Part shown: positions 13,214 to 57,265 of the stretch, piece by piece
Layout: each line of letters opens with the position of its first letter
Position numbering within the stretch: position 1 is the first letter of the stretch
From: an uncultured virus (IMG/VR IMGVR_UViG_3300025357_000001)
Taxonomy: Duplodnaviria; Heunggongvirae; Uroviricota; Caudoviricetes
Length of the DNA: 64,000 nt
IMG/VR virus record: IMGVR_UViG_3300025357_000001
Reading direction: 5' to 3' (one strand)
Program-made: the position numbers and the translations under genes
Notes under the pieces: model-generated
What the model saw: the letters and a program-made list of their open reading frames with translations, nothing else
What the model was told of the DNA's origin: nothing
The model's database searches: none

Positions 13214-13250
13214 TATACATATTAATGCAAATATAAGACTAAAAGCGCCC
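13214..13250 (-). promoter_or_regulatory. phage late-class promoter GGGCG-N16-TGCATTAnTAT
   Basis: GGGCG at 13250-13246, TGCATTA at 13229-13223; same geometry at five other loci. Confidence 0.75.
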
Positions 13251-13258
13251 CAAAATGC

Positions 13259-13287
13259 AAAAAAGCCACCTTGTGGGTGGCTTTTTT
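13259..13287. terminator. intrinsic terminator (bidirectional form) after the major capsid gene
   Basis: AAAAAAGCCACC-ttgtg-GGTGGCTTTTTT hairpin with A and T tracts. Confidence 0.85.
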
Positions 13288-13307
13288 GTTGCTGCTAGAG
13301 GTTTGGA

Positions 13308-14225
13308 TTACAAACCAGCTGTACCGTAGATGTTACGTGCATCATGCCAGCCTGTAGCGTAACGCTCAGTGGCCTTGTAGCGCATAGAATCAGTTTCGAA
13401 ATCGCCTTCCATGGATTTCTCCATTGGACGACGCATTACGAGCATGAGACCATTTTCGGCATCGGTCTGGATCCACCAAGCCTTGGAAGAAGACAAACGT
13501 GTCACAACGTGAGCACCTTTTGGCAACATACCAGTGGACTTAATTGGGTTCAGATCGTTGTCAGCTGTACCAGAACGGAGAACAGACTTCAGAATTACTT
13601 CTGCTTGGAACTCGAGTGCTGGTGGAACAACTAACTGTTCTGCTTTCAAACGGATACGCTTACCGTTGTTGTCAACTGCAGAGCGAATCTGAATGAGCAA
13701 CTGCTCAACAGAAGTTTGGCTCAAAGAAGCAGCTGTAGACAACTGGTTAGAGTAAGAACCGCCGTTAGCGATTGGGTGAGCGGTATTGATCAATGTAACG
13801 CCATCACCACCAACGTAGCCGCTTGTGAACGCGAAGTTCAACAAGTTAGCGCAGAGGGTTTCCTTAGTTTCAATCATAGACTGAGCCAAGTGTTTAGCGA
13901 AAGTGCTACCGATACGGATGTGATCGCCGTCTTCCATCAAAACTTTGGTCAAAGCATATGCCAAGCCATAGATTTGGTAGATGAAACGGGTGATGTACAA
14001 AGTACCGCCTTGATCGTAGCTAACTGGAGTGCCATCAGGCATCGCAGGAGCTGCGTTCATACCATAAAGCATTACTTCTTCATGGTAGTTACGTGGAATA
14101 CCTTGGATCTGTTCTACAAATCCTTTCCACTCGTCGTCGCGTTGTTCATAAACGCCATCAAAGACTTCGTTGATAATCGGTTCGACTACCGCACGAAAGT
14201 CTGTACTACGCATTGGGGTTGCCAT
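13308..14225 (-). CDS. major capsid protein
   Basis: 305 aa; LVVPPAL and DFETDSMRYKATERY..GW.D.R..YG motifs; downstream of scaffold, followed by terminator. Confidence 0.85.
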   Translation of the reverse strand: MATPMRSTDFRAVVEPIINEVFDGVYEQRDDEWKGFVEQIQGIPRNYHEEVMLYGMNAAPAMPDGTPVSYDQGGTLYITRFIYQIYGLAYALTKVLMEDGDHIRIGSTFAKHLAQSMIETKETLCANLLNFAFTSGYVGGDGVTLINTAHPIANGGSYSNQLSTAASLSQTSVEQLLIQIRSAVDNNGKRIRLKAEQLVVPPALEFQAEVILKSVLRSGTADNDLNPIKSTGMLPKGAHVVTRLSSSKAWWIQTDAENGLMLVMRRPMEKSMEGDFETDSMRYKATERYATGWHDARNIYGTAGL

Positions 14226-14245
14226 TGCTAATTCCTTTCGTTAAA

Positions 14246-14917
14246 TTAGATCGAGACCGAAGCGGCTGCAAACATGTTGTTTGCGATCTGTACTTGAACA
14301 ATCGTGTAAGCATCACCCCATTGGTTTGTATTACCAGCTGGGTAAGCTGCTTCACGGCCTAAACCTACAACACGTACTTGACCTTGTGCACCAGCAGCAA
14401 CAGGAGTTGCCAATAGAGCTGTGGTCGAGAAACCAGCGCCGCCTGTGCCGATGACATAGCCATCAGTTACAGTTGAGCCAGAAGTTGTGTCGAAGTTGTA
14501 CTGAGTACCGATTGCTGCGGTAGTTGCAGAACCGTTAACTTGGATTTCATAAACCAATGATGGGTCTTGGAAAATCCAAAAAACGATTGAAGAGGCTGCG
14601 TCTAAAGTTGTCTTAGAAGCATTTTTGCCCAAAGTGCGGCGGCCTTCTGCGGTTGTATACTCAACGCCATCAAATACACCATAAACACGACCAACGGTTG
14701 TGTTTGCAGCTGCTTGAGCAGCGATTGTCAATTGACCTGAAGCGGTCAACGCTACTGGTTGGAACTGGTAAAAAGACTGACCAGAGCTCAACGAGTAAGG
14801 AGCAGTATAAGAAGATCCGGGTGTGTATGTGTTTGTGCCAACGAATGGAACAGCACGATCAAGACCACTAGGATGGTATACTGGCTTCAGACCAAAGGGT
14901 TGAAATGTTGCGGACAT
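14246..14917 (-). CDS. minor capsid / head decoration protein
   Basis: PFGLKPV...GVFDGVEY...DP..VYEIQ pattern, directly upstream of the capsid gene. Confidence 0.6.
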   Translation of the reverse strand: MSATFQPFGLKPVYHPSGLDRAVPFVGTNTYTPGSSYTAPYSLSSGQSFYQFQPVALTASGQLTIAAQAAANTTVGRVYGVFDGVEYTTAEGRRTLGKNASKTTLDAASSIVFWIFQDPSLVYEIQVNGSATTAAIGTQYNFDTTSGSTVTDGYVIGTGGAGFSTTALLATPVAAGAQGQVRVVGLGREAAYPAGNTNQWGDAYTIVQVQIANNMFAAASVSI

Positions 14918-16507: not shown

Positions 16508-16951
16508 TTAGTCCACAAACGCTTTCATCTTCTGCGCATGCTCAAAACTCTTGATGCGAGAGATAATTTCACGTGCCTGAATGGTGATAAACACTACTGG
16601 AGCGCCATCATCATCTGGATTAACAACAAATCGGTCACCACCGTACTTAATTGTCCTAACCAAATCACCTTCTTTACACCAAGGGCCTTCAATCCAAGGC
16701 TCTAATGTGTCCGGTGACTTATATGCTAAAGGTCCAATTTGGATTACTTTGGCTACAGTCTCGTTGTAACGTAACGTTTGTTTGGTTTCATCCACAAGGA
16801 TGATTCCACCTTTACTGGTTGTTTTTTCGCGTCTTAACTGCACAAGCACACGATCACCAGCTACTTCTACACCGGGATCAACGTCTGGAAAACACTCAGC
16901 TTCTGAGCGCAAATCCGGTTCGTCTTTCTGGTTGATATCAAATGCTGCCAT
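16508..16951 (-). CDS. GroES/Cpn10-like co-chaperonin
   Basis: GDRVLV...TSKGGIIL...AKVIQIGP...KEGDLV...KYGG Cpn10 signature. Confidence 0.85.
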   Translation of the reverse strand: MAAFDINQKDEPDLRSEAECFPDVDPGVEVAGDRVLVQLRREKTTSKGGIILVDETKQTLRYNETVAKVIQIGPLAYKSPDTLEPWIEGPWCKEGDLVRTIKYGGDRFVVNPDDDGAPVVFITIQAREIISRIKSFEHAQKMKAFVD

Positions 16952-16971: not shown

Positions 16972-17163
16972 TTACGACTCTTCTTCGTCTTCCCTCAAAA
17001 TGTCATCAATAATGTCCAAAGCTTCCTTTAGACCTTCATGTCTGCCAACTAAACGTTGATAATCTTCGTATGAGTTAACATTGCTACCAGCGGTGAGGGT
17101 TTCCGCTAATTTTTTCTGCTCATCGCGTACGCGACGAATGATTTCTGAAATAAAGTCCTTCAT
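16972..17163 (-). CDS. small head-region protein, probably leaderless mRNA
   Basis: YEDYQRLVG..GL motif; ATG falls at predicted +1 of the upstream promoter. Confidence 0.65.
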   Translation of the reverse strand: MKDFISEIIRRVRDEQKKLAETLTAGSNVNSYEDYQRLVGRHEGLKEALDIIDDILREDEEES

Positions 17164-17199
17164 AAATATAGTAATGCAACTTTATGAAGGATTCCGCCC
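17163..17199 (-). promoter_or_regulatory. phage late-class promoter
   Basis: GGGCG 17199-17195, N16, TGCATTA 17178-17172, then CTAT. Confidence 0.75.
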
Positions 17200-17205: not shown

Positions 17206-17418
17206 TTAATAAAAGTTGCCGCCGCCGATTTCGTTCAGGTTCTTATCTGGACCAACTTTCTGGGATTTAGCCATCTTAGATTGGCTAGCACCGATTTTCC
17301 AGTTGTTGTCGCGATGTGAGCCAGAAGCACCATTATCGACTTTTTGATCAGGGCCACCAGCGTAGCCGGGGGTACCTGTCATTTTGTAGGCTTTTTTGTA
17401 GCCAAGTTCTTTTTCCAT
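17206..17418 (-). CDS. hypothetical protein
   Basis: ORF coupled to the portal stop. Confidence 0.55.
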   Translation of the reverse strand: MEKELGYKKAYKMTGTPGYAGGPDQKVDNGASGSHRDNNWKIGASQSKMAKSQKVGPDKNLNEIGGGNFY

Positions 17419-20279
17419 TATTGTTCCTCAGTGGGTGGTTGTTGTTGTTGTTGTTGCTGCTGTTGTGCTGCTTGTTGTTGCTGAACCATTTGCTGTCCGT
17501 GTTGCTGGGCAGCTTGTTGCATTTGTTGTGCATGTTGCTGCTGTGCTAAACGGGCTTGTTGTTGCGCTTGAAGTTGAGACTGCACTTGTTGTGCTTGTTG
17601 CTCAAATGCTTGCTGTTCTACTGCGATGCCATGCTGGCGAATATCTTGTTCGGAAGCTTGGATAGCTTGGAACGCGCTCATGTCTTGCTCATGTTCCAAC
17701 GCAGCTTGCTGTTGATCAAAAGCAGCGCCAGCGGTGATTTGTGCAACACGCTCTCTTGCAGCATTGTTGATGTTAGCCATCGCAATTTGAGTTGCATTAC
17801 GTTGGTTATCAATGTTGGTTTGAGTCTGGTATTTAGCCTGTAACTCTTGAACTTTTTGTTGCAATTCAGCAATCTTGATCTGATAATTCTGTTTATCTTG
17901 TTGCGCTTCCAGCTGCATACGGGCTTGTGATTCTGCCTGTTTGCGTTGTGTCTCAGCCAATTGTGTTTTAAGTAATACCTGAGCAGTTGGATCGTTAGAA
18001 GCAATTTGCTGTTGTTGTGCTTGTTGGGCTTGTGCCACTTTTTGTGCCAACATCTGGATTTGTTGTACATATGGCTGCATCGTCATTTGAGAGTCTTGAT
18101 CGACTAATTGAGATGCCAATGCCAAAGCTTGTTGGGCTTCGAGATTTAGTGGTTTTTCTTGGTGCAGATCAAGTACATCTTTTCCACCAGATGCTTGCGC
18201 CACGTATGAACGCATAGATTGCAAATAGTGTAGTGTTAAGTGTTGCTTGATATGCTCTAAAGCATGAGGTGCAAAAGCAGGGCCAATAACAGGGTTGCCG
18301 CCGTAAGCTGGATTATTCGCATACTCTAAGTGAACTTTGATGTGAGCAATATGGTCTTGATCTGGGTAGGCAGCGGCTGGGCGACCCATAGTCATCGCCA
18401 CGTTCTCCAACGCTGGGTTGGATTCTGCCGCGCCTAGAGGATTAGGCAATACTTCATCAATTGCTGGCACTTTCATTTGCTGCATGACACGGCGATAGAT
18501 TGCGCGCATGTCAAACATACCGGGAGGGGCGCCAGCTGCCATTTGTAACAACGCTTGGTTTTGTGCCAAACGTTGTGTTTCAGAAAAGATGTTAGGATCG
18601 GATACAGGGCGAATATCTGAGTTATACGCAAAGTCGCGTACCTCAATCTCTTCACCAGATTCGTTGTCCATTTCATCTAAGTACCAATGATTTATACGAG
18701 AAATAATGGCCAGTGATTTGGCTTGGCTACGATGTAGGCGAGCGTGGATGCTAGAGAATACTTTAGCGCCTTGCTCGATCAGAGCTTGGGTTGTGCCAAC
18801 TGGTGTGTTGGCATTAGCGTCAGCAATCTTTTCTTCTGATGTGGTGACTACGCCTTTTGCTTCATTGGTTAACCAGCCTAGTAATTCCATCAACACGCCA
18901 GAGGGCGCGTTAAATGGCATCGGCATAGCAATCTTACGTACATCATCGACGCCCGGAGCGCCTTCAATTTCAATTACTTGAGTGGGTTCAATTCTGTCGC
19001 TTTGGCCACCAATTCGTCCACCTTTGAGCTTAAGCATCGTCTGGCTGTTGTTGATATGAGCAGCGTCCAACAAAGCCCGTAGAGCACCAGTGAGAGCAGC
19101 AGCGAGGCCGCCAATAAGATGGGGAAGGCCAATAGCATAAGCACCCCGCCAAGGAATGAACTTGAACTCAACATACCAATCCAATTTTTCGAGCTTCTCA
19201 TCATTCGCTTCCCAGTTGCGATATAGTGCCAATACTTTACTTGTTGTTTCATCAATAGTTAGAATGTATGGTGCCCTACGACCATCGGTCAAAGGATCAT
19301 CTTCTAAACGGATAAAGCAAGTAATCTCATAAATACGACGCAAGCCATCAATGTTCTTCGATGGCATATCTTTGCCTTCGATCTTATTGTTGGCTTTTTC
19401 AGAACGGGTCTGATCGTTTAGTGGTGCATCTGAAGAATACTGCGAATTAATATCGATGTAAATACCCTGCTCGACACGTTGCAAAAATGTATCTTCGGTG
19501 ATGTCTTGCACCTCGGTTACGCGAGATGCTGTATAGAAATTGGTTGATGAGTACGGCAACAAAATGTTGTCGATTGGTACCCATTCGCATGTTGGGCGAC
19601 GTTGTTCTGCGTCATAGCGCCATTTGAGGAACTGTGAACCGCCTAGTGGTAGTTGGGTGAGCAGCTGCTCCATTTCATCACGAAACTCTGGCACTTGCTC
19701 AGTGAGCTGCCAGTTCATGAAGTTGACTTTACGCTCGGCTGCGTTTTCTTTTACTTGATCAGCTTGGCCCTTAATGTTAGACTTAACGATGCCTTCTGGT
19801 GGTAGTAATTCTTTAGATGAGGATGCTGCAAAGTCAACGCAAGCTTCTGCCATGACAGGGTGCACCACTTTAGAGGCGCCATCAAACGTGGCACCACCGG
19901 GCGCGTCTTTACCTAAGCCAGTGCGGCGTAGTCCTTCTTCATACTGTTTGTCACGCTGGGCGCGAGACTCACGGTCCACATCAATGTAATCCAAAAACTC
20001 AATGGCCAATGCGTCCAATGTGCCTTCATCAAACACCTCTGCCAAGTTCTGGTAAAACTCAGGATCTTCTTGCGGACCTTTGGTTTCCTTCAAATTAATG
20101 ACAACGGAACCATCATCCAATTCAATCACTTCTTGTTCAGCGGACTCTGGATCTAAATCAAACTCTTCCTCAAATCCTTCGAGTTGATCATTTTGATCTG
20201 ACATCTGATCAATTTCGTTTTCTTTATCCAAGGCCGGAAGATTACCGCCAGCTTGAATTGGAATCTGTGGTTGTGCCAT
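17418..20279 (-). CDS. portal protein with Gln-rich C-terminal extension
   Basis: 953 aa downstream of terL; VVHPVMAEACVDF and NTPVGTTQALIEQG motifs; poly-Q tail. Confidence 0.8.
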   Translation of the reverse strand: MAQPQIPIQAGGNLPALDKENEIDQMSDQNDQLEGFEEEFDLDPESAEQEVIELDDGSVVINLKETKGPQEDPEFYQNLAEVFDEGTLDALAIEFLDYIDVDRESRAQRDKQYEEGLRRTGLGKDAPGGATFDGASKVVHPVMAEACVDFAASSSKELLPPEGIVKSNIKGQADQVKENAAERKVNFMNWQLTEQVPEFRDEMEQLLTQLPLGGSQFLKWRYDAEQRRPTCEWVPIDNILLPYSSTNFYTASRVTEVQDITEDTFLQRVEQGIYIDINSQYSSDAPLNDQTRSEKANNKIEGKDMPSKNIDGLRRIYEITCFIRLEDDPLTDGRRAPYILTIDETTSKVLALYRNWEANDEKLEKLDWYVEFKFIPWRGAYAIGLPHLIGGLAAALTGALRALLDAAHINNSQTMLKLKGGRIGGQSDRIEPTQVIEIEGAPGVDDVRKIAMPMPFNAPSGVLMELLGWLTNEAKGVVTTSEEKIADANANTPVGTTQALIEQGAKVFSSIHARLHRSQAKSLAIISRINHWYLDEMDNESGEEIEVRDFAYNSDIRPVSDPNIFSETQRLAQNQALLQMAAGAPPGMFDMRAIYRRVMQQMKVPAIDEVLPNPLGAAESNPALENVAMTMGRPAAAYPDQDHIAHIKVHLEYANNPAYGGNPVIGPAFAPHALEHIKQHLTLHYLQSMRSYVAQASGGKDVLDLHQEKPLNLEAQQALALASQLVDQDSQMTMQPYVQQIQMLAQKVAQAQQAQQQQIASNDPTAQVLLKTQLAETQRKQAESQARMQLEAQQDKQNYQIKIAELQQKVQELQAKYQTQTNIDNQRNATQIAMANINNAARERVAQITAGAAFDQQQAALEHEQDMSAFQAIQASEQDIRQHGIAVEQQAFEQQAQQVQSQLQAQQQARLAQQQHAQQMQQAAQQHGQQMVQQQQAAQQQQQQQQQPPTEEQ

Positions 20280-20575: not shown

Positions 20576-20576
20576 C

Positions 20577-20613
20577 TATTTATACTAATGCACAAAGGTT
20601 ATATTTTTCGCCC
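20577..20613 (-). promoter_or_regulatory. phage late-class promoter
   Basis: GGGCG 20613-20609, N16, TGCATTA 20592-20586, then GTAT. Confidence 0.75.
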
Positions 20614-23032: not shown

Positions 23033-23300
23033 AAAAGTTTTCGAGGACCCATTGGTCCAACCAGCGCCCTAACGGCGCCCGAATACGGTTTTCAATTTTG
23101 TGTGGGAGTTTGCGAATGTCGACCACTTCTGACACTTTTAAGCGAAACTCCAGATATTTTGCGGTTTCATGGTCCAGCACTTCGGCTGGCACATCTACGC
23201 AATCCATATGATTTGCATCACATACAATAACACGCAAACCAAGAAAATTCCTAGCCGAGTCTTCCAAGGCTCCTTTGATTTGGTATGCGTAATTACTCAT
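22995..23300 (-). CDS. hypothetical protein, probably leaderless mRNA
   Basis: likely start MSNYAY at 23300, the predicted +1 of the upstream promoter. Confidence 0.6.
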   Translation of the reverse strand: MSNYAYQIKGALEDSARNFLGLRVIVCDANHMDCVDVPAEVLDHETAKYLEFRLKVSEVVDIRKLPHKIENRIRAPLGRWLDQWVLENFYGYTSKRKSINT

Positions 23301-23336
23301 AACTATACTAATGCACAAATTCCAATATAAGAGCCC
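23300..23336 (-). promoter_or_regulatory. phage late-class promoter (GGGCT variant)
   Basis: GGGCT 23336-23332, N16, TGCATTA 23315-23309, then GTAT. Confidence 0.7.
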
Positions 23337-23349
23337 ATTTACGAAAAAT

Positions 23350-23558
23350 TGACAGGGTTGACAGGGTTGACAGGGTCTATTCCAGTTTACCCCCCGATGT
23401 AAACATATTTTTTTTAAAAGTTTTTTTAAAAAGAAGAATAAAGGGTGACTACCCTGTCAATCCTGTCAATCAAGGACTTACGAGCGATACCTCAACGAAC
23501 AATCAAGGACTTACGAGCGATACTTAAGAAAAAAATTGACAGGGTTGACAGGGTACGA
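23350..23558. repeat. iteron-type origin-like element, copy 1
   Basis: tandem TGACAGGGT repeats, AT-rich tract, inverted CCCTGTCA/TCCTGTCA repeats, then more TGACAGGGT; near-duplicate at 30300. Confidence 0.7.
23468..23523 (+). promoter_or_regulatory. direct repeat carrying two IHF consensus sites
   Basis: AATCAAGGACTTACGAGCGATAC twice (23468, 23501); AATCAAGGACTTA matches WATCAANNNNTTR. Confidence 0.65.
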
Positions 23559-23725
23559 TTTTTTACTGAGACAAAAACCTGCAAAATTCTAAAAAAAAAT
23601 TTTAGAAATTGACTTTTTTTAAGAAACAGGGGGTGTATAAAAAACTTGAGCTTTGTGGGGCCCCCCACCTCGCACCCTCCCAGAGTGTCTTAAAAGGGGG
23701 ATGCCTCTCAATCAAAATGCCCCTA

Positions 23726-23913
23726 TGCACCACATTGGTGCATTAAGTGAGTGTCTGCTCACCTATTAGGTAAGTAAGCATTCACTCACATCGCGCAGTT
23801 GGACAATGCACCACATTGGTGCATAGGTGAAGTAAGCACTCACTCACTTAGGCAGACAGGCAGACAGACGATGCACCACATTGGTGCATTGGGGCGCGCA
23901 CCATGTTGGTGCA
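23726..23913. promoter_or_regulatory. cluster of four NtrC-like boxes interleaved with SlmA-like sites
   Basis: TGCACCACATTGGTGCA at 23726, 23807, 23872; CGCACCATGTTGGTGCA at 23897; GTAAGCATTCAC 23774; GTAAGCACTCAC 23832. Confidence 0.65.
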
Positions 23914-24087
23914 TTGGCAGACTGATAGATGAGCCTATGAGATGCGCGATCATCGTGGCATCGTGGCGCATCAACTCATCAACGATCGCTCAATGTGGCG
24001 CGATCTGATAAGCCTATGAGCCAATGCGCGCGCGAATGTAGGTGTGGCGATGTGGCGATATCAAAGCACAATATCGGAAAACACAAT

Positions 24088-24373: not shown

Positions 24374-24377
24374 CACC

Positions 24378-25793: not shown

Positions 25794-25808
25794 AAAGGAA
25801 AATTTATC

Positions 25809-29127: not shown

Positions 29128-29703
29128 TTGAGCAATACCAACAACGACATAAAAACCGACTACATTCAAGGGTTATTCAAATACCCTCCTCTCAAAACAG
29201 AAGAAGAGCATCACCTTGCCAAGTTAATTGCGCAAGGTGATGAATCTGCACTCGAAAAATTAGTTACTCACAATCTGCCATTCGTTGTCCATTTAGTAAG
29301 TAGGATGACGGCATGGCATCATGGCAAGTTACCAATGGAAGATTTGATAGCCATTGGTAATGAGTGCCTACTTATTTCTGCAAAGCGATGGAAACCCATT
29401 GGCGATGCAGGATTCTCATCCTATGCTCGCTCCTTTATCGAAAAGGGGGTGCGTAGAGAGCTAGATAACACCTCCAATATGATCCGCTTGCCTGTCAATA
29501 TCATGCAAGCCATCCGCAAGATGAGTTACAACGAGCGCGCCTTATCACAAAGCTTAGGCCGAGAGCCGACAGTAGCCGAATTGGCCGATGCGATGGATGT
29601 GACAATCGCGCGCATCTACCAATTAAAAGGCTACATCAACCGCGAGCCGATCTCATTGGATTTGATGAATAACGAAAAACATGCAGAAGAGAAGGAAGAA
29701 TGA
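29128..29703 (+). CDS. sigma70-family sigma factor with regions 1.2, 2 and 3 but no region 4
   Basis: YPPLKTEEE..LA, KLVTHNLPFVV, EDLIAIGNECL...FSSYA, NMIRLPVN, LGREPTVAELA, PISLD then stop. Confidence 0.88.
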   Translation: MSNTNNDIKTDYIQGLFKYPPLKTEEEHHLAKLIAQGDESALEKLVTHNLPFVVHLVSRMTAWHHGKLPMEDLIAIGNECLLISAKRWKPIGDAGFSSYARSFIEKGVRRELDNTSNMIRLPVNIMQAIRKMSYNERALSQSLGREPTVAELADAMDVTIARIYQLKGYINREPISLDLMNNEKHAEEKEE

Positions 29704-30038
29704 TGGAATTTACCGCAGAACAAAAGAAAGCCTATGCCAGATACCAAAAAGCGATGGAAAACGCAGGGATCGGGCAGTATCGCCTTAAAACCAAAAAGGC
29801 ATGGATACCCCAATCGGATTATTACTGTGTGGAGGTGACGGGTTTAAACCACCCTATGTATGCAATCAATGAGCCGTATCAGGAATATAAGGAGGCATTT
29901 TCAGCATGGTTAAAAGTAGCCCCTGAGCATACCAAAACAAGGATGTCCATGATTCGTGGAGATTATGACACCCAAGACAGTTGGGAGGAGAAAAACGCTC
30001 CCATTACTAGCATTATGGCTAAATTTGAAAAGGAATGA
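29700..30038 (+). CDS. hypothetical protein
   Basis: ORF coupled to the sigma gene stop. Confidence 0.6.
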   Translation: MMEFTAEQKKAYARYQKAMENAGIGQYRLKTKKAWIPQSDYYCVEVTGLNHPMYAINEPYQEYKEAFSAWLKVAPEHTKTRMSMIRGDYDTQDSWEEKNAPITSIMAKFEKE

Positions 30039-30244
30039 TGATGGAAAACGGAAAAGCAATACCAGTAGATGTTTATGACAAAGACGGCAATTTACTTCGA
30101 ATTGACTTTAACAACGAATTAGGAGACTTTTTAATCCAAGCAGTATGGGATGAGCGAGATGAGCAAACCAGTAAAAACAGGGAGTATTTTCGCAAGTGGG
30201 CATACACGATGGTAAAAAGACTAGGATTTGAGGTACCCAGCTAA
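30035..30244 (+). CDS. hypothetical protein
   Basis: coupled ORF with AAGGA RBS. Confidence 0.6.
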   Translation: MMMENGKAIPVDVYDKDGNLLRIDFNNELGDFLIQAVWDERDEQTSKNREYFRKWAYTMVKRLGFEVPS

Positions 30245-30556: not shown

Positions 30557-30572
30557 TGCATTATTATAGGTG
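30557..30572 (+). promoter_or_regulatory. middle-class promoter (TGCATTAnTAT, no GGGCG)
   Basis: TTTTGCATTATTATA upstream of primase; -35 position reads TGCTA. Confidence 0.65.
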
Positions 30573-41661: not shown

Positions 41662-41896
41662 CTTCATGAGGCAGTTTCTAAAGCATAGAGGCTTTAGTAA
41701 CGACATGATTAAAGCTGTAGAGGAAAAGACAAAGCGTACCAGCCAAGAAAAGGAAATGGAAGATCGCCTTGTAGCCGAAGCTATGGCCAAAAACATGATC
41801 AACGAAATGATGCCAATGTTCAGAAAGCATCTTGCAGAGCAGCAAAAGGCTAAAGAAAAGCCAGTTAAGAAAATTATTGTTCCAGACGACAAATAG
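41654..41896 (+). CDS. hypothetical protein
   Basis: ORF, likely start MDNFMR. Confidence 0.5.
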   Translation: MDNFMRQFLKHRGFSNDMIKAVEEKTKRTSQEKEMEDRLVAEAMAKNMINEMMPMFRKHLAEQQKAKEKPVKKIIVPDDK

Positions 41897-41932
41897 GGCG
41901 GTTTTTAGGTGGTTTGTGCATTAGTATAAATA
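41896..41932 (+). promoter_or_regulatory. phage late-class promoter driving the terS-containing operon
   Basis: GGGCG 41896-41900, N16, TGCATTA 41917-41923, then GTAT. Confidence 0.75.
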
Positions 41933-41997
41933 GGGAGTACAACTCGTCGTGAGACGCTTGGAAACCCATTTACACACTATACACACAGGAGAATCAC

Positions 41998-42460: not shown

Positions 42461-42771
42461 AAGACTTTAAGACATTACCTAAGATGGCATCTGGCGGTTC
42501 TGCTAAACATGACAAGCCAATTGCAAAGACAACAACTGGTAAAGGTCGTCACTATCTAAGTACCAGCGAAGGCGCTGGTATGACAGAGGCTGGTCGTAAG
42601 GCATATAACGCCAAAAACGGCAGTCATCTAAAGGCACCACAGCCTGAAGGTGGATCACGCAAAGATTCATTTTGTGCCCGTATGAGCGGCGTTAAAGGTC
42701 CAATGAAGGACGAAAATGGCAAACCAACAAGAAAAGCAGCAGCACTAAAAAGGTGGAAATGTGGTAGCTAA
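42457..42771 (+). CDS. basic protein (DUF6321-like)
   Basis: GMTEAGRKAYN...LKAP...RKDSFCARM...ALKRWKC. Confidence 0.65.
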   Translation: MKDFKTLPKMASGGSAKHDKPIAKTTTGKGRHYLSTSEGAGMTEAGRKAYNAKNGSHLKAPQPEGGSRKDSFCARMSGVKGPMKDENGKPTRKAAALKRWKCGS

Positions 42772-43156
42772 AAGGTCATCCCCAAAGAAAAAACTGTTTA
42801 CAGAGGAAATGGCAAACGTCATTTTGGAACTCGGTAAGCAGGGTGCATCCCAAAAAACGATGTATGCAGCTATTAACATCAGCAAAGCGACAGCGGCAAA
42901 ATGGAAGAAAGAAGACCCATTTTTTGCTGAAACAATGGATTTGGCCACAACTTACGGTCAAAGCTATTGGGAGATGATGATGTTAGCTAACGTCGAAAAC
43001 AAAGCTTTTAACAGCCGTATTGCCGAAATTGCCCTTCGCGGACAATACCCAGACGACTACAAAGATAACCGCGAAATCAAAGCGGAGATCAAACAAGAAA
43101 CCAAAATCGACTTTAACAAAGAAATTGCTGATTTAATTTCCGCCCTAAAAGTCTAA
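42761..43156 (+). CDS. probable terminase small subunit (HTH, P22/Sf6-like)
   Basis: VILELGKQGAS...INISKATAAKWKKEDPFFAE...YWE; under a late promoter. Confidence 0.6.
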   Translation: MVAKRSSPKKKLFTEEMANVILELGKQGASQKTMYAAINISKATAAKWKKEDPFFAETMDLATTYGQSYWEMMMLANVENKAFNSRIAEIALRGQYPDDYKDNREIKAEIKQETKIDFNKEIADLISALKV

Positions 43157-43182: not shown

Positions 43183-43210
43183 AAGGGGGCCTTGCGCCCC
43201 CTTCGTTTTT
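43183..43210 (+). terminator. intrinsic terminator after the terS-like gene
   Basis: AAGGGGGC-cttgc-GCCCCCTT followed by CGTTTTT. Confidence 0.65.
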
Positions 43211-43225
43211 GCATTATTATATATA
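43210..43225 (+). promoter_or_regulatory. middle-class promoter (TGCATTAnTAT, no GGGCG)
   Basis: TTTTGCATTATTATA upstream of the nuclease-SSB operon; -35 position reads GCCTT. Confidence 0.65.
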
Positions 43226-48956: not shown

Positions 48957-48984
48957 GGGGCGGCTTGTACAGCGCCCCTTTTTT
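48957..48984 (+). terminator. intrinsic terminator
   Basis: GGGGCG...CGCCCC followed by T6. Confidence 0.7.
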
Positions 48985-49034
48985 ATGCTACACTACCTGT
49001 TCCGCCGATACGTCGGCTTGCCATAGGAGCACTT

Positions 49035-52853: not shown

Positions 52854-54793
52854 TATTGGGCTTTCTTATACTTGTTCAATATTTTCTGAATATCTTCTGG
52901 GTGCTCAACTTTTTCGGATTTAGGTGAGCGATCCAATTTGTAGTCAGTTTCTTTAATAGCGGCAATATCTTTTTCGTAACGAGCCACAGCATCGTTAAAT
53001 GCTTGACCACGTTCAAACTGTCTGAAGTTTTTATACTTGCTACCATCACCGTACAGAGAACTAAGCTCTTTATCCAAATCAGCACGACGCTCAAGTTGTT
53101 TAGCGCGTTTGTAAATGTTTTCTGATGGATCAGAAATGCCAGTTGAAGTGTCACGTAAAATTTGACGTTCGCTATTAGAAATAGTACCTTGACCTTTAAT
53201 CAAAGCAGCAGAGTCTAATTCCATACGAGCCAAGTAGCTAGCTAACTCATGACGCTTGGCAATACTTTGGTCGGTAGTTTCTGGTAGTGTTTGGAAAATA
53301 GCATCTTCCAAAGCTGGTAAACTGATTTGACCTTTAGGTGTTGTAACACCTTCTTTAATAAACTTACCGATTGCGTTAGCGTAGCCTTTGCTTGCTAAAA
53401 CACCAGCAATAGAAGGATCTGACGCCAATAGGCTTTGAATCCTTGTGTAAGAGGTCTTACGATCTGCAATGTCAATTGGGCGTGTAGAGTCTTCAAAAGC
53501 AGCACGTTGTGCTTCTGAACTCTTAGCAGACTGTTGACCAGCTTCAATTTGTGCTGCTTTATCTGCTTCTTGAGCTGCTTTAGCTTCGACCAATGTTGGT
53601 CTTGGTACGTTAACAGTTTGTCCAGCAGGGGGAGTAACAACTTGAGCTGGCGCAGTAGCCAATCCAGCTTTTTGTTTAGCTTGTTCAATATATTCTCCAA
53701 CAGAAGGAGCATTGGGGTTCTTTGGGTCTTTAAGACCACGATTAATAGTACCATCAGCATTAATGGCGCCCGGGCCAGCATAGTATGCAGCATAGGTTTT
53801 ATCAATGTCTCCGTCGTATTTTTTGTAGTAAGAAGCAATTAATGCTTTACCAGCGGCCATGTTTTGTTGCGGATCGTTGATATCAGCATTAGGTGGTATC
53901 AGACCTTGCTTCTTCATGGTATCAAATGTATCTTGGGTAATCTGCATTGGGCCAACAGCGCCAGCATAGTTTGGTTTAGATGTATCCGCTTTACCAAAAT
54001 TACTTTCTTGACCGTAAATGCCGTTTACTGCTGCGTCCAAAGTACCAGAGTGAGTCGCTGGTGCACCTTGGGCGTTGTTAATTGCAGCTTGACCTTGTGG
54101 CGTTAAGTTGTAACGCTCTGGGTGCATGCGGTATTCGCGTGGTGATACCACATCTGGGCGACCGTCTGGTAATAAAACATCAACAGTCTTCTTATCCATT
54201 TCTGGGCTAGCATATACTTCAGCAGCTTTTTTAAGTGTTGAATCGTATAGTGCTTCAGCTTCAGTAATTCGACCCAAACCGCGCAGACGTTTTACTTCTG
54301 CCATAACTTGTGGGTCAACAATAGAGAAGTTACCAGCTTGCGTTGTGGTAGATGGCATACCAGCACCACCAGCATTTGGACCGCCACCACCAAGGATTTG
54401 GTCTAATGAATTTGCTGCGTTTTGCTGTTGTGCTTGAGCAGCTTTGAACGCAGCCATCTGGGTCTGCATATCAAAAATCTCTTTAGCTTTTTGTTCTTTT
54501 TGCTTATCTATTGCGCTTAGTGCATTGAACTGAGAATTATCTACAGTTGGTAACAACCAAGCCATTGCCTCACGCAAGTTATCTTGTGTACCAGATGCTT
54601 TACGTTGGTCGATCATATCCTGCATATTTTTCAGGATTTCATCAGTTTGTTTTGTTCCTAATAAAACGTTGCCGGGAATAGACAAGCCACTCTTAGAGGG
54701 AGCCATTTTGGTAGGAACGCCCGCTGGCAATGCACCACCAGAGGTTTGAGATTGATCTACGGCGTCTAAACCGCTTTGTACATCATCAGCCAT
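52853..54793 (-). CDS. internal virion protein with lytic transglycosylase domain
   Basis: IYGQES...GAVGPMQI...T...AAYYAGPG SLT motifs; start likely MADDVQ coupled to the upstream stop. Confidence 0.8.
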   Translation of the reverse strand: MADDVQSGLDAVDQSQTSGGALPAGVPTKMAPSKSGLSIPGNVLLGTKQTDEILKNMQDMIDQRKASGTQDNLREAMAWLLPTVDNSQFNALSAIDKQKEQKAKEIFDMQTQMAAFKAAQAQQQNAANSLDQILGGGGPNAGGAGMPSTTTQAGNFSIVDPQVMAEVKRLRGLGRITEAEALYDSTLKKAAEVYASPEMDKKTVDVLLPDGRPDVVSPREYRMHPERYNLTPQGQAAINNAQGAPATHSGTLDAAVNGIYGQESNFGKADTSKPNYAGAVGPMQITQDTFDTMKKQGLIPPNADINDPQQNMAAGKALIASYYKKYDGDIDKTYAAYYAGPGAINADGTINRGLKDPKNPNAPSVGEYIEQAKQKAGLATAPAQVVTPPAGQTVNVPRPTLVEAKAAQEADKAAQIEAGQQSAKSSEAQRAAFEDSTRPIDIADRKTSYTRIQSLLASDPSIAGVLASKGYANAIGKFIKEGVTTPKGQISLPALEDAIFQTLPETTDQSIAKRHELASYLARMELDSAALIKGQGTISNSERQILRDTSTGISDPSENIYKRAKQLERRADLDKELSSLYGDGSKYKNFRQFERGQAFNDAVARYEKDIAAIKETDYKLDRSPKSEKVEHPEDIQKILNKYKKAQ

Positions 54794-55788
54794 TAAATGC
54801 TCCATCCTGCATTTGAGTTATAAAGAGTACTATAGTTATAGCCACTTAAATCAGGATTATTTATAGTTGGTGTATTGGTTGGATAGTTACCACTAATATC
54901 CGGGGAACTACTAATATAACCGCCGGGTGTAGTCGTTGGGGTACTTCCATTTGGTGTATTGCCGCCAAGACCTAAAGCACTAGATAAACTATTGGATAAC
55001 CAATTGTTTACGTTTGTGCCAATTGAACCAATTGTTCCACCAAGTGCGCCACCAGTTGCGCTATTGAGCGCGCCCAACAATGCTAATGGTGAGGTATTGA
55101 CAGAACTGGTGACTGTGGTTGGAGCTTGGATAGTATTTAAAATCTGTGCTAAGTCGGCAGTAGAGGTTAATGGTGCTGCCTGTTGGGCTTGACCTAATGT
55201 AGTTTCTGTAGCAGTACCTTGTGCGCCAACGTTTCCTAATGCGGTAGCAGCGTTAACACCGGTTTGTTGGCCTGTTAATGCGGCTTGCATCTGTTGTGCT
55301 AGCAAATTAGCTTGTGCATTAGCACCAGCGGCTTGCTGTGCTGTTTGACCACGCAGGCTACCAAACTGACCAGCGGCTGTTCCAGCGGCTCCGGTCTGTG
55401 CTTGAATCTGTGGTAGTAGTGTATTGAGTTCTTGGTTTTGTGCTTGGAACAAACCACCTAATGCTGTGTTGGTATTTGGTGTTACATTACCAGAAGCATC
55501 AGTCATCCAAGGATTAGCAGCTCCAGTAGCAATTGTATTTAATGTGCCTTGAGCTTGGGTGAATGGGTTATTTTGACCACTAAGGTTATTAATAGCTTGG
55601 CCAGCAACGGTATTTTGCAGCGCAGGAATATTGGCTGAACCTTGAGTTGCTTGATTAACAATTTGTTGCTGTGCTTGGTCATACCAAGACGGCATTGTCG
55701 TGGTTTGAGACTTGGTGTTTTGAGCTAAACTACCAAGTTGGTTTGCAGTAGAATTTAAACTACCTACGATGTCTGAAAGTCCAGCCAT
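54793..55788 (-). CDS. DNA ejection (pilot) protein
   Basis: Gln/Ala/Gly-rich, AGQFGSLRG motif, hydrophobic Gly-rich segment. Confidence 0.6.
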   Translation of the reverse strand: MAGLSDIVGSLNSTANQLGSLAQNTKSQTTTMPSWYDQAQQQIVNQATQGSANIPALQNTVAGQAINNLSGQNNPFTQAQGTLNTIATGAANPWMTDASGNVTPNTNTALGGLFQAQNQELNTLLPQIQAQTGAAGTAAGQFGSLRGQTAQQAAGANAQANLLAQQMQAALTGQQTGVNAATALGNVGAQGTATETTLGQAQQAAPLTSTADLAQILNTIQAPTTVTSSVNTSPLALLGALNSATGGALGGTIGSIGTNVNNWLSNSLSSALGLGGNTPNGSTPTTTPGGYISSSPDISGNYPTNTPTINNPDLSGYNYSTLYNSNAGWSI

Positions 55789-55789
55789 T

Positions 55790-56755
55790 TTATTTCTTTA
55801 CCTTTTTGTGAGCCTCAGATAGATAAGTTAAAACACCTTTACTATCTGGCGGCAAATGTTTCGCATCATGCTTTTGTTTGTGCGCACGAACTGTTTCCAA
55901 GAAATTGTCTAATACTTTAGAACCACTATCGTTACTGCCGTTACCTAAAGAAGACACAACATCAGCTGGAATAACAAACTCACCATTAGCTAACATTGCT
56001 GGCACATCATCGCTAGTGCCATCGCCTTTACCTTTCACATAGCGGTGTTTTAAACCACCTTCGCTATAAAACTCAGGCACATGAACATCACCACCCTCGC
56101 TACGATAAGTAACTTGTGGTGTGTTTAGTGCTTGGCTTTGGAAATGTGGGTGCAGAGATAACGCGCCCATTGGTCGGCCATGGGTTGTTCTAGCTTCATA
56201 TCCAAAAGTTGGGCTGCTAGTAGGGATTTGCTCAACACTACTGCCTTCATCAAAACTTTGTACAGGACCACCAGTTGCTAACAGTGCTTCTGTACCGGGA
56301 TCAGCTTGGAATGTTGGAGAGGATACATTGGCATTAAATGCACCAGATGAGCCGAAAGAAGGTTGATCTAAATTAATGGAGCCGCTTGATCTTGTCAATC
56401 CGGGACTTAAGTTAGACATATCCACGGTAGGACTTAAAGAAGATAATGGGTTAGATGCAGCCGGTGTTGTTGTCGGTGTACTAGGTGTTGACGGAGAAGG
56501 CAGCGGTGTCGGTAAACCAGTAGACGGCGTTTTTGTTACAGGCGTAGTTGGCGTCTTAGGTAAAGACGGAGTTTTTGGTGTAGATGGATTACTAGGGGTC
56601 GTAGGCTGAGTATAATCCGATGGAGGAGTATAGTCAGATGGAGGAGAATAAGGAGTATAAGGGGTATAGGCATTATATGCGTTATACGCATTATAGGCGT
56701 TGTATGCGTTATACGCATTGTACGCATCATATCCACCGTAAACAACACCACCCAT
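55790..56755 (-). CDS. internal virion protein with repeats and a GDGTSDD..AML.NGEFVIPADVV domain
   Basis: (YNA)n and Pro/Thr-rich N-half; conserved C-terminal domain. Confidence 0.6.
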   Translation of the reverse strand: MGGVVYGGYDAYNAYNAYNAYNAYNAYNAYTPYTPYSPPSDYTPPSDYTQPTTPSNPSTPKTPSLPKTPTTPVTKTPSTGLPTPLPSPSTPSTPTTTPAASNPLSSLSPTVDMSNLSPGLTRSSGSINLDQPSFGSSGAFNANVSSPTFQADPGTEALLATGGPVQSFDEGSSVEQIPTSSPTFGYEARTTHGRPMGALSLHPHFQSQALNTPQVTYRSEGGDVHVPEFYSEGGLKHRYVKGKGDGTSDDVPAMLANGEFVIPADVVSSLGNGSNDSGSKVLDNFLETVRAHKQKHDAKHLPPDSKGVLTYLSEAHKKVKK

Positions 56756-56757
56756 AA

Positions 56758-57207
56758 TTACTCCATTACAATCGAATAAACTTTTTCAAAATAATTAGCT
56801 CCAAGTCTTTCCAACAAATGCCCGTAATCTAAAAAGGGCTTGACATGGAACATAATCCTCTGTGGATTACGCTTTTTAATTTCTTCCGTAGTCCACTTAA
56901 TAAACCTATAACCCAACATTCCCTTTCGGTGTGTTGGCGCTATGTACAAAACATCAGACGATGCAGTAAAACTGTCTTTATAGTGGATGTGTTGCCTTAA
57001 CATCCAAATACTATAACCTACTAGTTTACCATCATCCCTAATGGTATGAATCTCTAAACTGTCATTGTTTTCCAATTGATTATAAGCATCAAAATTGGGG
57101 TTTAATTTAATGACATCGGTGCGTTCTGCAATCTCATCATAGTGATCTTCGAACAGTTTTTGCGCTTCTTTAGCAAAGCGCGAGTCTTCCTTTTGGAACG
57201 TAATCAT
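56758..57207 (-). CDS. GNAT-fold protein
   Basis: LVGY...DVLYIAPTHRKG..G motif A; position preceding ejection genes as in podoviruses. Confidence 0.7.
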   Translation of the reverse strand: MITFQKEDSRFAKEAQKLFEDHYDEIAERTDVIKLNPNFDAYNQLENNDSLEIHTIRDDGKLVGYSIWMLRQHIHYKDSFTASSDVLYIAPTHRKGMLGYRFIKWTTEEIKKRNPQRIMFHVKPFLDYGHLLERLGANYFEKVYSIVME

Positions 57208-57228
57208 TGAGTTTTTCCACTATGTTGC

Positions 57229-57265
57229 TACCTATATTAATGCAAAAAAGAGCCTTTTTACGCCC
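57229..57265 (-). promoter_or_regulatory. phage late-class promoter
   Basis: GGGCG 57265-57261, N16, TGCATTA 57244-57238, then ATAT. Confidence 0.75.

Follow-up and report, generated by a model that had tools for sequence, protein, structure and literature searches.

A predicted sigma-dependent promoter family with two classes in an uncultured tailed phage and its relatives

That phages encode sigma factors and use temporal classes of promoters is textbook knowledge; as far as we are aware, few phage sigmas have been characterised in detail, nearly all from cultured coliphages and Bacillus phages. A 64,000-nt stretch of DNA from an uncultured member of the Caudoviricetes (IMG/VR record IMGVR_UViG_3300025357_000001; the whole stretch is referred to below as the window) raises the question of whether one promoter motif, with or without a second element upstream, sorts phage genes by function, and of what would read the two elements. 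Such a sorting had been proposed in a sequence-only reading of this DNA. Megablast against deposited phages identified no close relatives of the window, and conservation was examined in 243 related metagenomic phage loci, belonging to a widespread uncultured clade for which sequence alone suffices to draw the whole predicted transcription map.

The motif, its upstream element and their distribution

The motif TGCATTA-N-TAT-N3-T-R (TGCATTANTATNNNTR) occurs eight times in the window, compared to 0.07 matches expected, at exactly the positions proposed by the sequence-only reading (Table 1), and none of 100 dinucleotide-preserving shuffles contained at least eight matches. Since the heptamer TGCATTA on its own shows no enrichment (22 matches in the window vs. 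16.9 expected), the signal resides in the extended motif. The word of the upstream element by itself is not enriched either (8 vs. 7.9 expected), and the combination GGGCG-N16-TGCAT was found 5 times vs. 0.09 expected. At the sixth site (23300, minus strand) GGGCT replaces GGGCG with the identical 16-nt spacing, and neither word precedes the sites at 30557 and 43210 (plus strand), all as originally described. The final base of the motif is A in seven sites and G in one (30572), which places the proposed T/purine step at the same position in all eight. In a position-weight scan of the window, using a matrix built on exact-core matches that penalises core variants, the eight sites scored 19.5–31.6 bits and the next-best site 6.9 bits; thus, no further sites appear to be hidden in the window.

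The coding fraction of the window is approximately 95% (crude ORF caller), and the eight sites are intergenic. All eight face the next gene, with motif position 16 lying 0–91 nt upstream of its start codon. This placement, together with the frequent location of the sites just past terminators and their conservation in relatives, supports their prediction as promoters.

Table 1. Predicted promoters, structured leaders and genes discussed in the text (coordinates of the window).
Feature	Position	Strand	Motif match	Details
Late-class promoter	13214..13250	-	13214-13229	GGGCG 13246-13250, N16, TGCATTAATATGTATA; proposed +1 = 13214
Late-class promoter	17163..17199	-	17163-17178	GGGCG 17195-17199, N16, TGCATTACTATATTTA; heads head module
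Late-class promoter	20577..20613	-	20577-20592	GGGCG 20609-20613, N16, TGCATTAGTATAAATA; heads 98-aa ORF and portal gene
Terminase-operon promoter	23300..23336	-	23300-23315	GGGCT 23332-23336, N16, TGCATTAGTATAGTTA
Late-class promoter	57229..57265	-	57229-57244	GGGCG 57261-57265, N16, TGCATTAATATAGGTA
Late-class promoter within replication block	41896..41932	+	41917-41932	GGGCG 41896-41900, N16, TGCATTAGTATAAATA
Replication-class promoter, no GGGCG	30557..30572	+	30557-30572	TGCATTATTATAGGTG; 21 nt upstream of primase gene
Replication-class promoter, no GGGCG at 16 nt	43210..43225	+	43210-43225	TGCATTATTATATATA; 26 nt upstream of DUF2800 exonuclease gene
Structured 5′ leader, ~91 nt	13124..13214	-		12 predicted pairs, 4 with compensatory changes
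Structured 5′ leader	41932..41997	+		10 predicted pairs, 8 with compensatory changes
Phage sigma factor, 191 aa	29128..29703	+		regions 1.2, 2, 3; ends at start of region 3.2; no sigma-4
Two small genes coupled to sigma gene	29700..30244	+		112 aa at 29700-30038; 69 aa at 30035-30244
Helix-turn-helix protein, 131 aa, Sf6-type small-terminase-like	42761..43156	+		best fold matches all Sf6 small terminase

The promoter at 13214, whose TGCATTA (13223, minus strand) is directly preceded by a hairpin and T-run as read from the site context, heads the gene at 12557–13123 and the tail/fibre operon via the leader listed in Table 1. The head module under promoter 17163 encodes a Cpn10-like protein and the major capsid protein, and the promoter at 57229 heads an acetyltransferase-like gene and internal virion proteins (among them a 650-aa protein with an SLT domain). 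With the portal and terminase operons, five of the six sites carrying GGGC(G/T) therefore head clearly structural genes. The sixth (41917, plus strand) heads an 85-aa ORF, the gene of a DUF6321 protein and the 131-aa gene; the claim that all six serve virion or packaging genes holds here insofar as the last of these is small-terminase-like by fold. Both GGGCG-less sites head replication operons, namely primase-helicase and exonuclease-SSB-RNR-polymerase, the latter promoter (43210) directly following a terminator hairpin (43183–43203).

In the relatives (related loci: portal 281, exonuclease 228, primase 103), 421 core matches, representing 273 unique 60-mers, were obtained across the 243 loci, and the class split proved to be conserved. 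GGGCG is located at 16 nt in 119 of 125 unique sites of virion/packaging orthologues (at 15 nt in five more), and no GGGCG was found within 40 nt in 100 of 103 unique replication sites; these counts, like all those across relatives, come from related, non-independent sequences. The word is kept in 16/17 unique orthologous sites of promoter 13214, 34/34 of the portal-operon promoter and 33/33 of the promoter at 41917, and it is absent from 21/21 unique primase sites and 27/28 exonuclease sites (one has a single-mismatch version). In two diverged relatives, G003 and G004, the exonuclease promoter is preceded by GGGCA at the same spacing, inside a terminator stem. The sorting by gene function holds for both classes as a whole, with this and two further departures: 2 of the 103 replication-class sites carry GGGCG, and the terminase operon is mixed (14 unique sites: GGGCG at 16 nt in three, at 15 nt in one, absent in ten). 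An explanation of GGGCG as the mere half of a terminator stem was rejected at most sites, where the complementary arm is absent; it is true for a few.

Motif positions 15–16, the step proposed for the start, are T-A in 122/125 late sites, and T-A in 66/103 and C-A in 21/103 replication sites. The sequence TTTTGCATTATTATA, proposed as common to both GGGCG-less sites, is indeed shared by them in the window, but the T at its N position is not class-specific in relatives: the base was G in 53, T in 24 and A in 24 of 101 replication sites, and G in 82, T in 24, A in 13 and C in one of 120 late sites. This T was consequently rejected as a class mark. In two relatives of 51% GC, with a sigma factor approximately 50% identical, the core has drifted to TGCAT[AT][AG]GT; these genomes nonetheless keep TGCAT and its 16-nt spacing from the upstream element, as well as the T-A step and the leaderless ATG described below.

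Predicted start site and promoter geometry

The transcription start most likely corresponds to motif position 16 (T-1/A+1), as predicted from leaderless start codons and 5′ stems. Two gene families keep their ATG exactly at this position. At promoter 17163, the ATG of a 63-aa ORF has its first base on position 16, an arrangement preserved in 34 of 36 unique orthologous sites and likewise in G001, G003 and G004. At promoter 23300 it is the A of the ATG of a 101-aa ORF, the first of the terminase operon, whose start codon is at the same position in G001 and G003 (8 of the 14 unique sites have an ATG at positions 16–18). At promoter 20577 the ATG lies 2 nt past position 16. The leader at 41932 has a covarying outer stem beginning at +2, an inner hairpin with a GNRA-like loop and a ribosome-binding site preceded by a CA-rich tract; the leader at 13214 has AGGAAG as its first six bases, counted from the proposed +1.

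With +1 at position 16, TG occupies -15/-14, a T lies at -7 and GGCGGA spans -35 to -30, leaving a 17-bp spacer between GGCGGA and ATTAnT. The distance between GGGCG and TGCAT (16 nt in the 119 late sites mentioned above) agrees with the 16–18 bp typical of bipartite promoters, and TG at -15/-14 is the arrangement of an extended -10 element, TG being invariant by selection and its register depending on the inferred +1. TGCAT is also kept in the diverged G003 and G004. The hexamer does not conform to TAnnnT, being ATTAnT, ATAAGT or ATAGGT, and in the favoured register -12/-11 is A-T rather than the near-universal T-A, so this register may be mistaken. With TAnTAT as the alternative, the start would move approximately 2 nt downstream, at the expense of the leaderless ATGs.

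Some late-class spacers can fold into a hairpin followed by a T-run (57266–57249 in the window, and sites in G001 and G004).

The phage sigma factor and the reading of the two elements

The same genome encodes a sigma factor (PHROG sigma factor family, E 1.6e-27) that the sequence-only reading had missed. Its presence changes how the motif is interpreted: no longer as an abstract “code”, but as a sigma-dependent promoter family to which a -35-position element is added. Pfam detected only regions 1.2, 2 and 3 in this protein, which aligns with solved primary SigA from region 1.2 through the start of region 3.2. All 37 aligned orthologues terminate in REPxSLD and an acidic tail, and among 429 homologues all 120 listed are 184–205 aa long and lack a region-4 domain. 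Each of four complete relatives contains exactly one sigma gene, ruling out a second one there, and six-frame searches of four relatives with the sigma-4 families PF04545 and PF08281 yielded nothing above the cut-off: PF04545 gave only sub-threshold matches within the region-3 helix-turn-helix of the sigma gene itself, and PF08281 gave no match. When compared with solved sigmas, the helix contacting -10/-12 is changed from YATWWIRQAITR to YARSFIEKGVRR, and the region-3 helix differs as well, changes that fit a different specificity. Based on its co-occurrence with the motif in one clade and on the promoter geometry, the phage sigma is predicted to be what probably reads the motif.

We put at roughly 70% the probability that the eight sites are promoters of the host RNA polymerase core carrying the phage sigma, and that the virion/packaging promoters add a separately read -35-position element that makes them a separately controlled class. 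The host core enzyme would carry to these sites a cut-down primary-type sigma, composed of regions 1.2, 2 and 3.0/3.1 and a short acidic tail. TG at -15/-14 would fall where sigma region 3 reads the extended -10 motif, and ATTAnT would span -12 to -7 with its invariant T at -7. This -10-side module, common to all the promoters, could in principle be used alone by a sigma lacking sigma-4, and the replication-class promoters would consist of nothing else. The virion/packaging promoters would add TAGGGCGGA at -36 to -30, i.e. at the canonical -35 position with a 17-bp spacer. A bipartite promoter read by a single sigma requires a region-4 helix-turn-helix, which the phage protein lacks; a -35-position element combined with such a sigma is a paradox. 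Since no sigma domain reaches this element, something else must read it, and we infer a trans-acting reader of GGGCG, most likely a factor of the phage that either substitutes for sigma-4 or serves as a class-specific activator. The outcome would be a separately controlled transcription class, probably later and stronger than the other.

In a more specific form of this proposal, recognition would be split: the sigma, devoid of the finger-distal linker and sigma-4, would read only TGCATnnnT, and a separate phage protein of no known family, placed where sigma-4 would be, would read GGGCGG at -35, its supply switching transcription from replication to virion genes. We offer this version tentatively, as an unlikely one; if true, it would represent a two-piece sigma occurring in nature, with -35 recognition entrusted to a subunit that can be detached and timed. 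An answer to the puzzle of a canonically spaced element without a -35-reading domain might bring to light a sigma-4 surrogate or activator of a new kind. Of practical value would be an orthogonal sigma and its promoters, forming a compact pair with a two-level design built in, and a rule for predicting which genes are middle and which late in this clade's metagenomic phage contigs.

Candidates for the reader were sought among the window proteins. None of the 91 proteins scanned against Pfam matched a DNA-binding family. The only clear helix-turn-helix protein of the set, the 131-aa protein, was filed as TerS because the Sf6 small terminase is its nearest match by fold; a second role is possible. 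The 112-aa protein encoded next to sigma was rejected as a sigma-4-like partner or anti-sigma: its gene was not found by tblastn in G002–G004, and its AlphaFold model (26 sequences, pLDDT 72) gave nothing at E ≤ 0.001 in Foldseek against the PDB, a best Z of 5.1 to generic helical hairpins in a VIA wide search and no usable match in the ESM Atlas. A complex prediction for sigma and the 112-aa protein gave no verdict (score 0.00, uncontrolled) and weighs neither way on binding. Members of the 69-aa family occur in each of the five genomes. A cofactor role is unsupported for both small proteins; for the 69-aa protein, structural neighbours in the Atlas were uninformative, and a profile against PDB sequences gave nothing significant (best E 0.021, a collagen adhesin).

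This outcome bears on the possibility that, with the same promoters and the same sigma, the classes differ in strength rather than timing. GGGCGG would then be an affinity-boosting upstream element, read by some factor or through DNA shape, that raises virion-gene output with no middle-to-late switch. Virion genes require far more product, the core is common to both classes, no candidate late activator was found in the searches, and the drift of the terminase-operon promoter between classes in relatives is easier to reconcile with a quantitative role than with a strict switch. However, the rigid spacing in the late sites and the near-absence of the word from replication sites look like discrete recognition, and the conservation in all five genomes of a late-class promoter within the replication block suggests separate control. 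We regard a difference in strength alone as possible, if somewhat doubtful.

Reading of the motif by the host primary sigma, possibly after modification of the polymerase by the phage, with another role for the phage sigma, appears improbable. The core does carry TG as in an extended -10, and T at -7. At the DNA-polymerase gene, moreover, the place taken by a replication-class site in other relatives is occupied in the window and G001 by TGCTACA(C/A)T, an extended -10 of host type, which shows that either promoter type can stand in this position. Against this, the core lacks T-A at -12/-11, the phage sigma is altered in both helices described above, and the core drifts together with the phage clade across genomes of 39–51% GC. 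Perfect TTGACA-17/18-TATAAT sequences are present upstream of the sigma gene in relatives (3/36 loci, 12/12 matches), suggesting that hosts use canonical promoters for early genes. A scan of the window with the host-type promoter consensus gave 20 matches in the early region vs. 24.2 expected and no enrichment elsewhere; its best match (28665–28693, TTGAAT-17-TATAAT with TG) was distrusted as it lies inside conserved N-terminal codons of an ORF.

Several sites adjoin hairpins, as RNA-processing sites, protein operators or packaging signals might, but a non-promoter element of this kind is very improbable given the co-orientation of all eight sites with the downstream gene, the exact coincidence of the start codon with position 16 in two gene families, the structured leaders that start at positions 16–17 and a bipartite geometry that agrees with promoter spacing. 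Least probable of all is a phage RNA polymerase of unrecognised type reading the 16-nt core: large proteins without assigned function exist (628, 421, 357 and 320 aa), but the window proteins contain neither a PHROGs or Pfam match to such an enzyme nor a DxDGD motif, the sigma gene is present and conserved, and the -35/-10 spacing is typical of sigma-dependent holoenzymes.

Relation to known phage transcription systems

A literature search on region-4-less phage sigmas and the motif word TTGCATTA found nothing on this system. In T4 late transcription, the gp55 sigma acts with gp33 and the gp45 clamp at TATAAATA promoters, and gp33 (112 aa) occupies the sigma-4 site on the polymerase. The predicted promoters resemble this system in combining a small sigma lacking sigma-4 with a -10-only core promoter, and differ from it in their -35-position element, absent from T4 late promoters. 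No gp55, gp33 or gp45 family was found in PHROG/Pfam searches of the window, and TATAAATA is present in two of the eight window sites and is not conserved (positions 11–16 are TAAATA in 22 of 120 late sites). T4 middle promoters have a MotA box at -30 that is used with AsiA-remodelled sigma-70; the proposed replacement of sigma-4 recognition at the -35 position by a phage factor, creating a new temporal class, would be similar, except that sigma-4 is remodelled in T4 and absent here. MotA and AsiA families had no match in the window family searches. Extended -10 (TGnTATAAT) promoters of the primary sigma function without -35 contacts. The present core likewise has TG placed 3 nt ahead of a hexamer whose last base is T, and the proposed start lies 7 nt past this hexamer, which would explain how the replication-class sites could serve a sigma that lacks sigma-4; the hexamer of the core, unlike TAnnnT, is ATTAnT.

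Two further phage sigmas are described in PMC8948821. Phage 7-11 gp47 has region 4, and its late promoters (GTAAtg-(16)-aCTA) are bipartite with a 16-nt spacer (PMC8948821). The promoters predicted here are likewise bipartite with a 16-nt spacer and lie upstream of late genes; unlike the sigma of the window, gp47 as portrayed in that source includes a homologue of region 4, by which the upstream element can be read. In the same account, gp36 of phiEco32 has no homology to region 4 and uses single-element middle/late promoters located 6–8 bp before the start, with the consensus tAATGTAtA and a -35 element said to be lacking (PMC8948821). As far as that account goes, the window resembles this podovirus in having a sigma without region 4 and a short, highly conserved element a few bp before the start that heads non-early genes; it differs in the core sequence (TGCATTAnTA) and in the upstream element at six of the eight sites. 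The sigma also differs, being a truncated primary-type protein by its Pfam regions (1.2, 2 and 3), and no phiEco32-like record was present among the 30 listed of 116 tblastn records (best identity there ~37%). The adaptor protein of the window matches a Pfam family named for the phiEco32-like phage SU10.

Two classes of probable promoters in the window and its relatives

Pattern searching of the window with TGCATTA-N-TAT-NNN-T-R revealed 8 matches against 0.07 expected, a number reached by 0/100 dinucleotide-preserving shuffles. All eight sites claimed in the sequence-only reading were thus found, with coordinates exactly as given there, and the GGGC(G/T) word described 16 nt upstream of six of them was likewise seen (GGGCG exactly at five sites, GGGCT at the sixth). 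The bare heptamer TGCATTA is not enriched in the window (22 versus 16.9 expected); the upstream word is relevant only when coupled to the core, since alone it is not enriched either (8 versus 7.9 expected), while GGGCG-N16-TGCAT gives 5 matches against 0.09 expected. In a weight-matrix scan of the window the eight sites scored 19.5–31.6 bits and all other positions ≤6.9 bits, the matrix having been built from exact-core matches, so that core variants are penalised. All eight sites are oriented toward the next gene, whose start codon lies 0–91 nt further. The motif scan of the window identified no promoter site for the 63961–57265 operon; in the four complete relatives (G001–G004) a promoter precedes the orthologue of the 62644 gene.

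Features of the window, with genes assigned from PHROGs and Pfam
Feature	Coordinates	Strand	Remark
Proposed start sites with GGGC(G/T)	13214, 17163, 20577, 23300, 57229	-	motif position 16
Proposed start site with GGGC(G/T)	41932	+	core at 41917, within replication block
Proposed start sites without GGGC(G/T)	30572, 43225	+	motif position 16
Tail fibres, major capsid protein, Cpn10-like protein, portal, large terminase	30-23318	-	PHROGs/Pfam
Leader RNA	13124-13214	-	12 pairs, 4 with compensatory changes
Major capsid protein	13308-14225	-
Cpn10/GroES-like protein	16508-16951		within head module
Portal	17418-20279	-
Large terminase	20613-22058	-
327-aa protein	22049-23032		adjoins large terminase upstream
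Look-alike noncoding structures	23319-23491, 30245-30592		either side of small-ORF region
Small ORFs and amidoligase/GATase pair	about 23.4-30.3 kb		PHROGs/Pfam
Palindrome array	23720-23925		four copies in about 200 bp
Called ORF	23799-24008		probably spurious
Amidoligase_2 protein (492 aa), then 352-aa protein	24315-26867		early region
Sigma factor, 191 aa	29128-29703	+	PHROG sigma family, E 1.6e-27
Primase, SNF2 helicase, DUF2800 exonuclease, Enc34-type SSB, ribonucleotide reductase, DNA polymerase	30593-50966	+
Sulfotransferase-family protein and APS-kinase/KTI12-like P-loop kinase	36908-37729, 45839-46672		replication block
Leader RNA	41932-41997	+	10 predicted pairs, 8 with compensatory changes
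Conserved stretch (minus-frame ORF)	42265-42432	-	includes 10-pair hairpin, 42267-42294
DUF2815 RNA motif (Rfam)	45047-45110	+	80.5 bits (gathering score 41.2)
Terminator hairpin, then TGCTACACT	about 48957-48994	+	before DNA polymerase gene
Internal virion proteins including SLT-domain protein, SU10-type adaptor	50967-63961	-
Adaptor protein	60950-61570		SU10 (phiEco32-like podovirus) family

Relatives were drawn from a large IMG/VR clade (281 loci for portal, 228 for exonuclease, 103 for primase and, from a close-relative search, 3 for sigma). The comparison set comprised 243 loci (2.03 Mb) and the four complete genomes (68.1, 66.2, 64.8 and 64.1 kb for G001–G004; GC 39–51%; terminal repeats in two). 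TGCATTA.TA gave 421 usable matches in the 243 loci, corresponding to 273 unique 60-mers. Each site was labelled with the window protein best matching the first coding region downstream, and GGGCG was scored at −21 to −17 from the core.

The claim that the two classes sort by gene function held in these relatives. GGGCG was present before orthologues of the 12557 gene (16/17 unique sites), the 63-aa gene at 16972 (31/36), the portal operon (34/34) and the 41998 gene (33/33). It was absent before those of primase (21/21), the 40046 gene (22/22), exonuclease (27/28), SSB (23/23) and DNA polymerase (6/7). When the sites were pooled, as related and not independent sequences, the word stood at 16 nt in 119 of 125 unique late-class sites (15 nt, 5; 28 nt, 1; none within 40 nt, 1) and in 2 of 103 unique replication-class sites (15 nt, 0; 4 nt, 1; none within 40 nt, 100). 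Terminase-operon sites were mixed (14 unique; 16 nt, 3; 15 nt, 1; none within 40 nt, 10), as were sites without a protein match (30 unique; 17, 1 and 12, respectively), and one more unique site is located within a head gene. Both classes are made up of four or five distinct promoter positions apiece, and every position is conserved among genomes of widely differing composition. The late-class consensus is TaGGGCGGAtt...ttTGCATTAgTAt..aTAgGAa, and that of the replication class is tTTTGCATTA.TATa..tA. T at the N position, a feature described for both replication sites of the window, proved not to be class-specific in the relatives.

The exonuclease promoter always lies 3′ of a GC-rich terminator, the 5′ arm of which is close to −35. 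This arm reads GGGCA at the exact late-class spacing in G003 and G004, and the absence of the element from the replication class is therefore not absolute. Some late-class spacers (in the window and at G001 and G004 sites) contain a potential hairpin and a T-run.

The late site within the replication block heads an 85-aa ORF followed by genes for a DUF6321 protein and for a protein of 131 aa, and a GGGCG-class (or one-mismatch) promoter lies upstream of this cluster in all five genomes. The 131-aa protein weakly matches three small-terminase PHROGs (best E 9.3e-7). Its AlphaFold model (54 sequences, pLDDT 81.7) retrieved the Sf6 small terminase in all top six Foldseek rows, with probabilities of 0.94–1.00 and TM 0.46–0.51 over 100 columns, at E-values of only 0.095–0.47. 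The predicted Sf6-small-terminase-like fold supports the "virion or packaging" label that all six GGGC sites had been given. Between the 85-aa and DUF6321 genes, the conserved stretch (66–80% protein identity of its minus-frame ORF in all four complete relatives) may represent either an RNA element or a short gene.

Proposed start sites and leaders

Three indirect lines of sequence evidence point to motif position 16 as the transcription start. Firstly, positions 15–16 are T-A in 122/125 late-class sites, and T-A (66/103) or C-A (21/103) in the replication class. Secondly, the 5′ end of a leaderless mRNA is necessarily at or adjoining its AUG, and the ATG of the 63-aa gene coincides with position 16 in 34/36 unique sites, also in the diverged G003 and G004 despite differing intervening bases; in G002 this gene has instead a leader of 31 nt that includes a ribosome-binding site. 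Likewise, the window, G001 and G003 place the ATG of the first terminase-operon ORF at position 16, and ATG occupies positions 16–18 in 8/14 unique sites of this operon. Thirdly, the two long leaders are structured RNAs starting at about position 16. In the plus-strand leader the outer stem starts from +2, and a GNRA-like hairpin is followed by a CA-rich tract and the ribosome-binding site. Both conserved leaders may be RNA elements that stabilise or regulate late transcripts.

A phage sigma factor without region 4

The window encodes a sigma factor that the sequence-only reading had overlooked. Its Pfam domains are region 1.2 (residues 18–39), region 2 (45–112) and region 3 (129–179), and no Pfam match to region 4 was found in the protein. 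In alignments with solved structures, its match to primary SigA extends from region 1.2 only just into region 3.2 (e.g. residues 123–291 of a 390-residue SigA), and 37/37 aligned orthologues have the same C-terminal end, a short acidic tail after REPxSLD. Of 429 homologues in the protein database, the 120 listed are uniformly 184–205 aa long and lack a region-4 domain, which makes the truncation a family trait rather than an artefact. Each of the four complete relatives contains exactly one such gene, and no sigma-4 family scored above cut-off in any of their frames, weak matches falling only inside the sigma's own region-3 helix-turn-helix. Among deposited phages, no sigma more than about 37% identical was found in the best 30 of 116 records.

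In three of 36 relatives (L174, L172 and L169) a perfect TTGACA-17/18-TATAAT site lies 190–760 nt upstream of the sigma gene, which suggests that the early operon containing it is driven by canonical host promoters.

Taking position 16 as +1 places T-G at −15/−14, ATTAnT at −12 to −7 and GGCGGA at −35 to −30, with a 17-bp spacer. This layout is that of a canonical sigma-70-family promoter with an extended −10, except for A-T in place of T-A at −12/−11; the −10 register could be shifted. The T at −7 is invariant and is retained even by the TGCAT[AT][AG]GT core of G003 and G004. In the sigma alignment, the primary-sigma consensus YATWWIRQAITR of the helix contacting −12/−11 is changed to YARSFIEKGVRR, and that of the region-3 helix, RIPVHMVETINK, to RLPVNIMQAIRK. 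Both differences would fit an altered promoter specificity, given the residue-to-base contacts assigned to these helices. The sites are probably the promoter family of this sigma-4-less sigma, a link drawn from co-occurrence and geometry only. The sequence-only interpretation is supported in part, and in a narrower form.

Extended −10 promoters work without sigma-4, and a sigma lacking it is therefore plausibly enough for the replication-class sites, which it would serve unaided. The late sites, judged by their conservation, are a second promoter class marked by the −35-position element. They present a paradox, as this element is rigidly spaced and sequence-specific, yet the sigma has no domain to read −35. 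A separate putative reader that substitutes for sigma-4 or activates this class specifically would account for this; a repressor is a further possible option.

The nearest functional analogies for sigma-4 replacement are T4 gp55/gp33/gp45 and T4 MotA/AsiA, homologues of which were not found among the window proteins with PHROGs and Pfam. Open-access papers and bioRxiv preprints yielded nothing on this system when queried by region-4-less phage sigma or motif word. phiEco32 gp36 is reported to lack region-4 homology and to use a single element, tAATGTAtA, 6–8 bp before the start, and phage 7-11 gp47 to have a region-4 homologue and a bipartite promoter, GTAAtg-(16)-aCTA (PMC8948821). The present case combines, at late genes, a sigma of the gp36 kind with a bipartite promoter of the gp47 kind.

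Gene map and neighbouring elements

The window (43% GC) has no close relative among deposited phages, and no tRNA genes were found in it. The Cpn10-like protein and the SU10-family adaptor hint that its structural proteins may be remotely related to those of phiEco32-like phages. The 327-aa protein next to the complete large terminase gives weak large-terminase PHROG matches (E 7.9e-10) and no Pfam match; the small-terminase-like gene lies 20 kb away. In the early region, the 352-aa protein weakly matches class-II glutamine amidotransferases. The sulfotransferase and APS-kinase/KTI12-like genes may serve sulfation-related auxiliary metabolism, or DNA/protein modification.

The small-ORF (probably early) region is bordered by the two noncoding structures, each with three direct TTGACAGG(G/A) repeats, an AT-rich stretch and two inverted copies (CCCTGTCAA). 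One adjoins the promoter at 23300 (−) and the other that at 30572 (+). The window has 11 occurrences of the word TTGACAGGG/CCCTGTCAA, and the structures resemble origins or operator arrays. The array nearby consists of the 19-bp perfect palindrome ATGCACCACATTGGTGCAT, and units resembling it occur toward the left end of G001. Possible interpretations are an operator array or a location close to the genome ends.

The DUF2815 RNA motif overlaps the 5′ end of the Enc34-type SSB gene and, in relatives, is immediately preceded by a promoter of the replication class (23/23 sites); no such promoter was found there in the window. Before the DNA polymerase gene, the terminator hairpin (GGGGCGGC...GCGCCCC and a T-run) is followed by TGCTACACT, by its sequence a host-type extended −10. 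G001 has TGCTACAAT at the same position, and other relatives have a replication-class TGCATTA site, a pattern suggestive of an exchange between promoters of host type and phage type.
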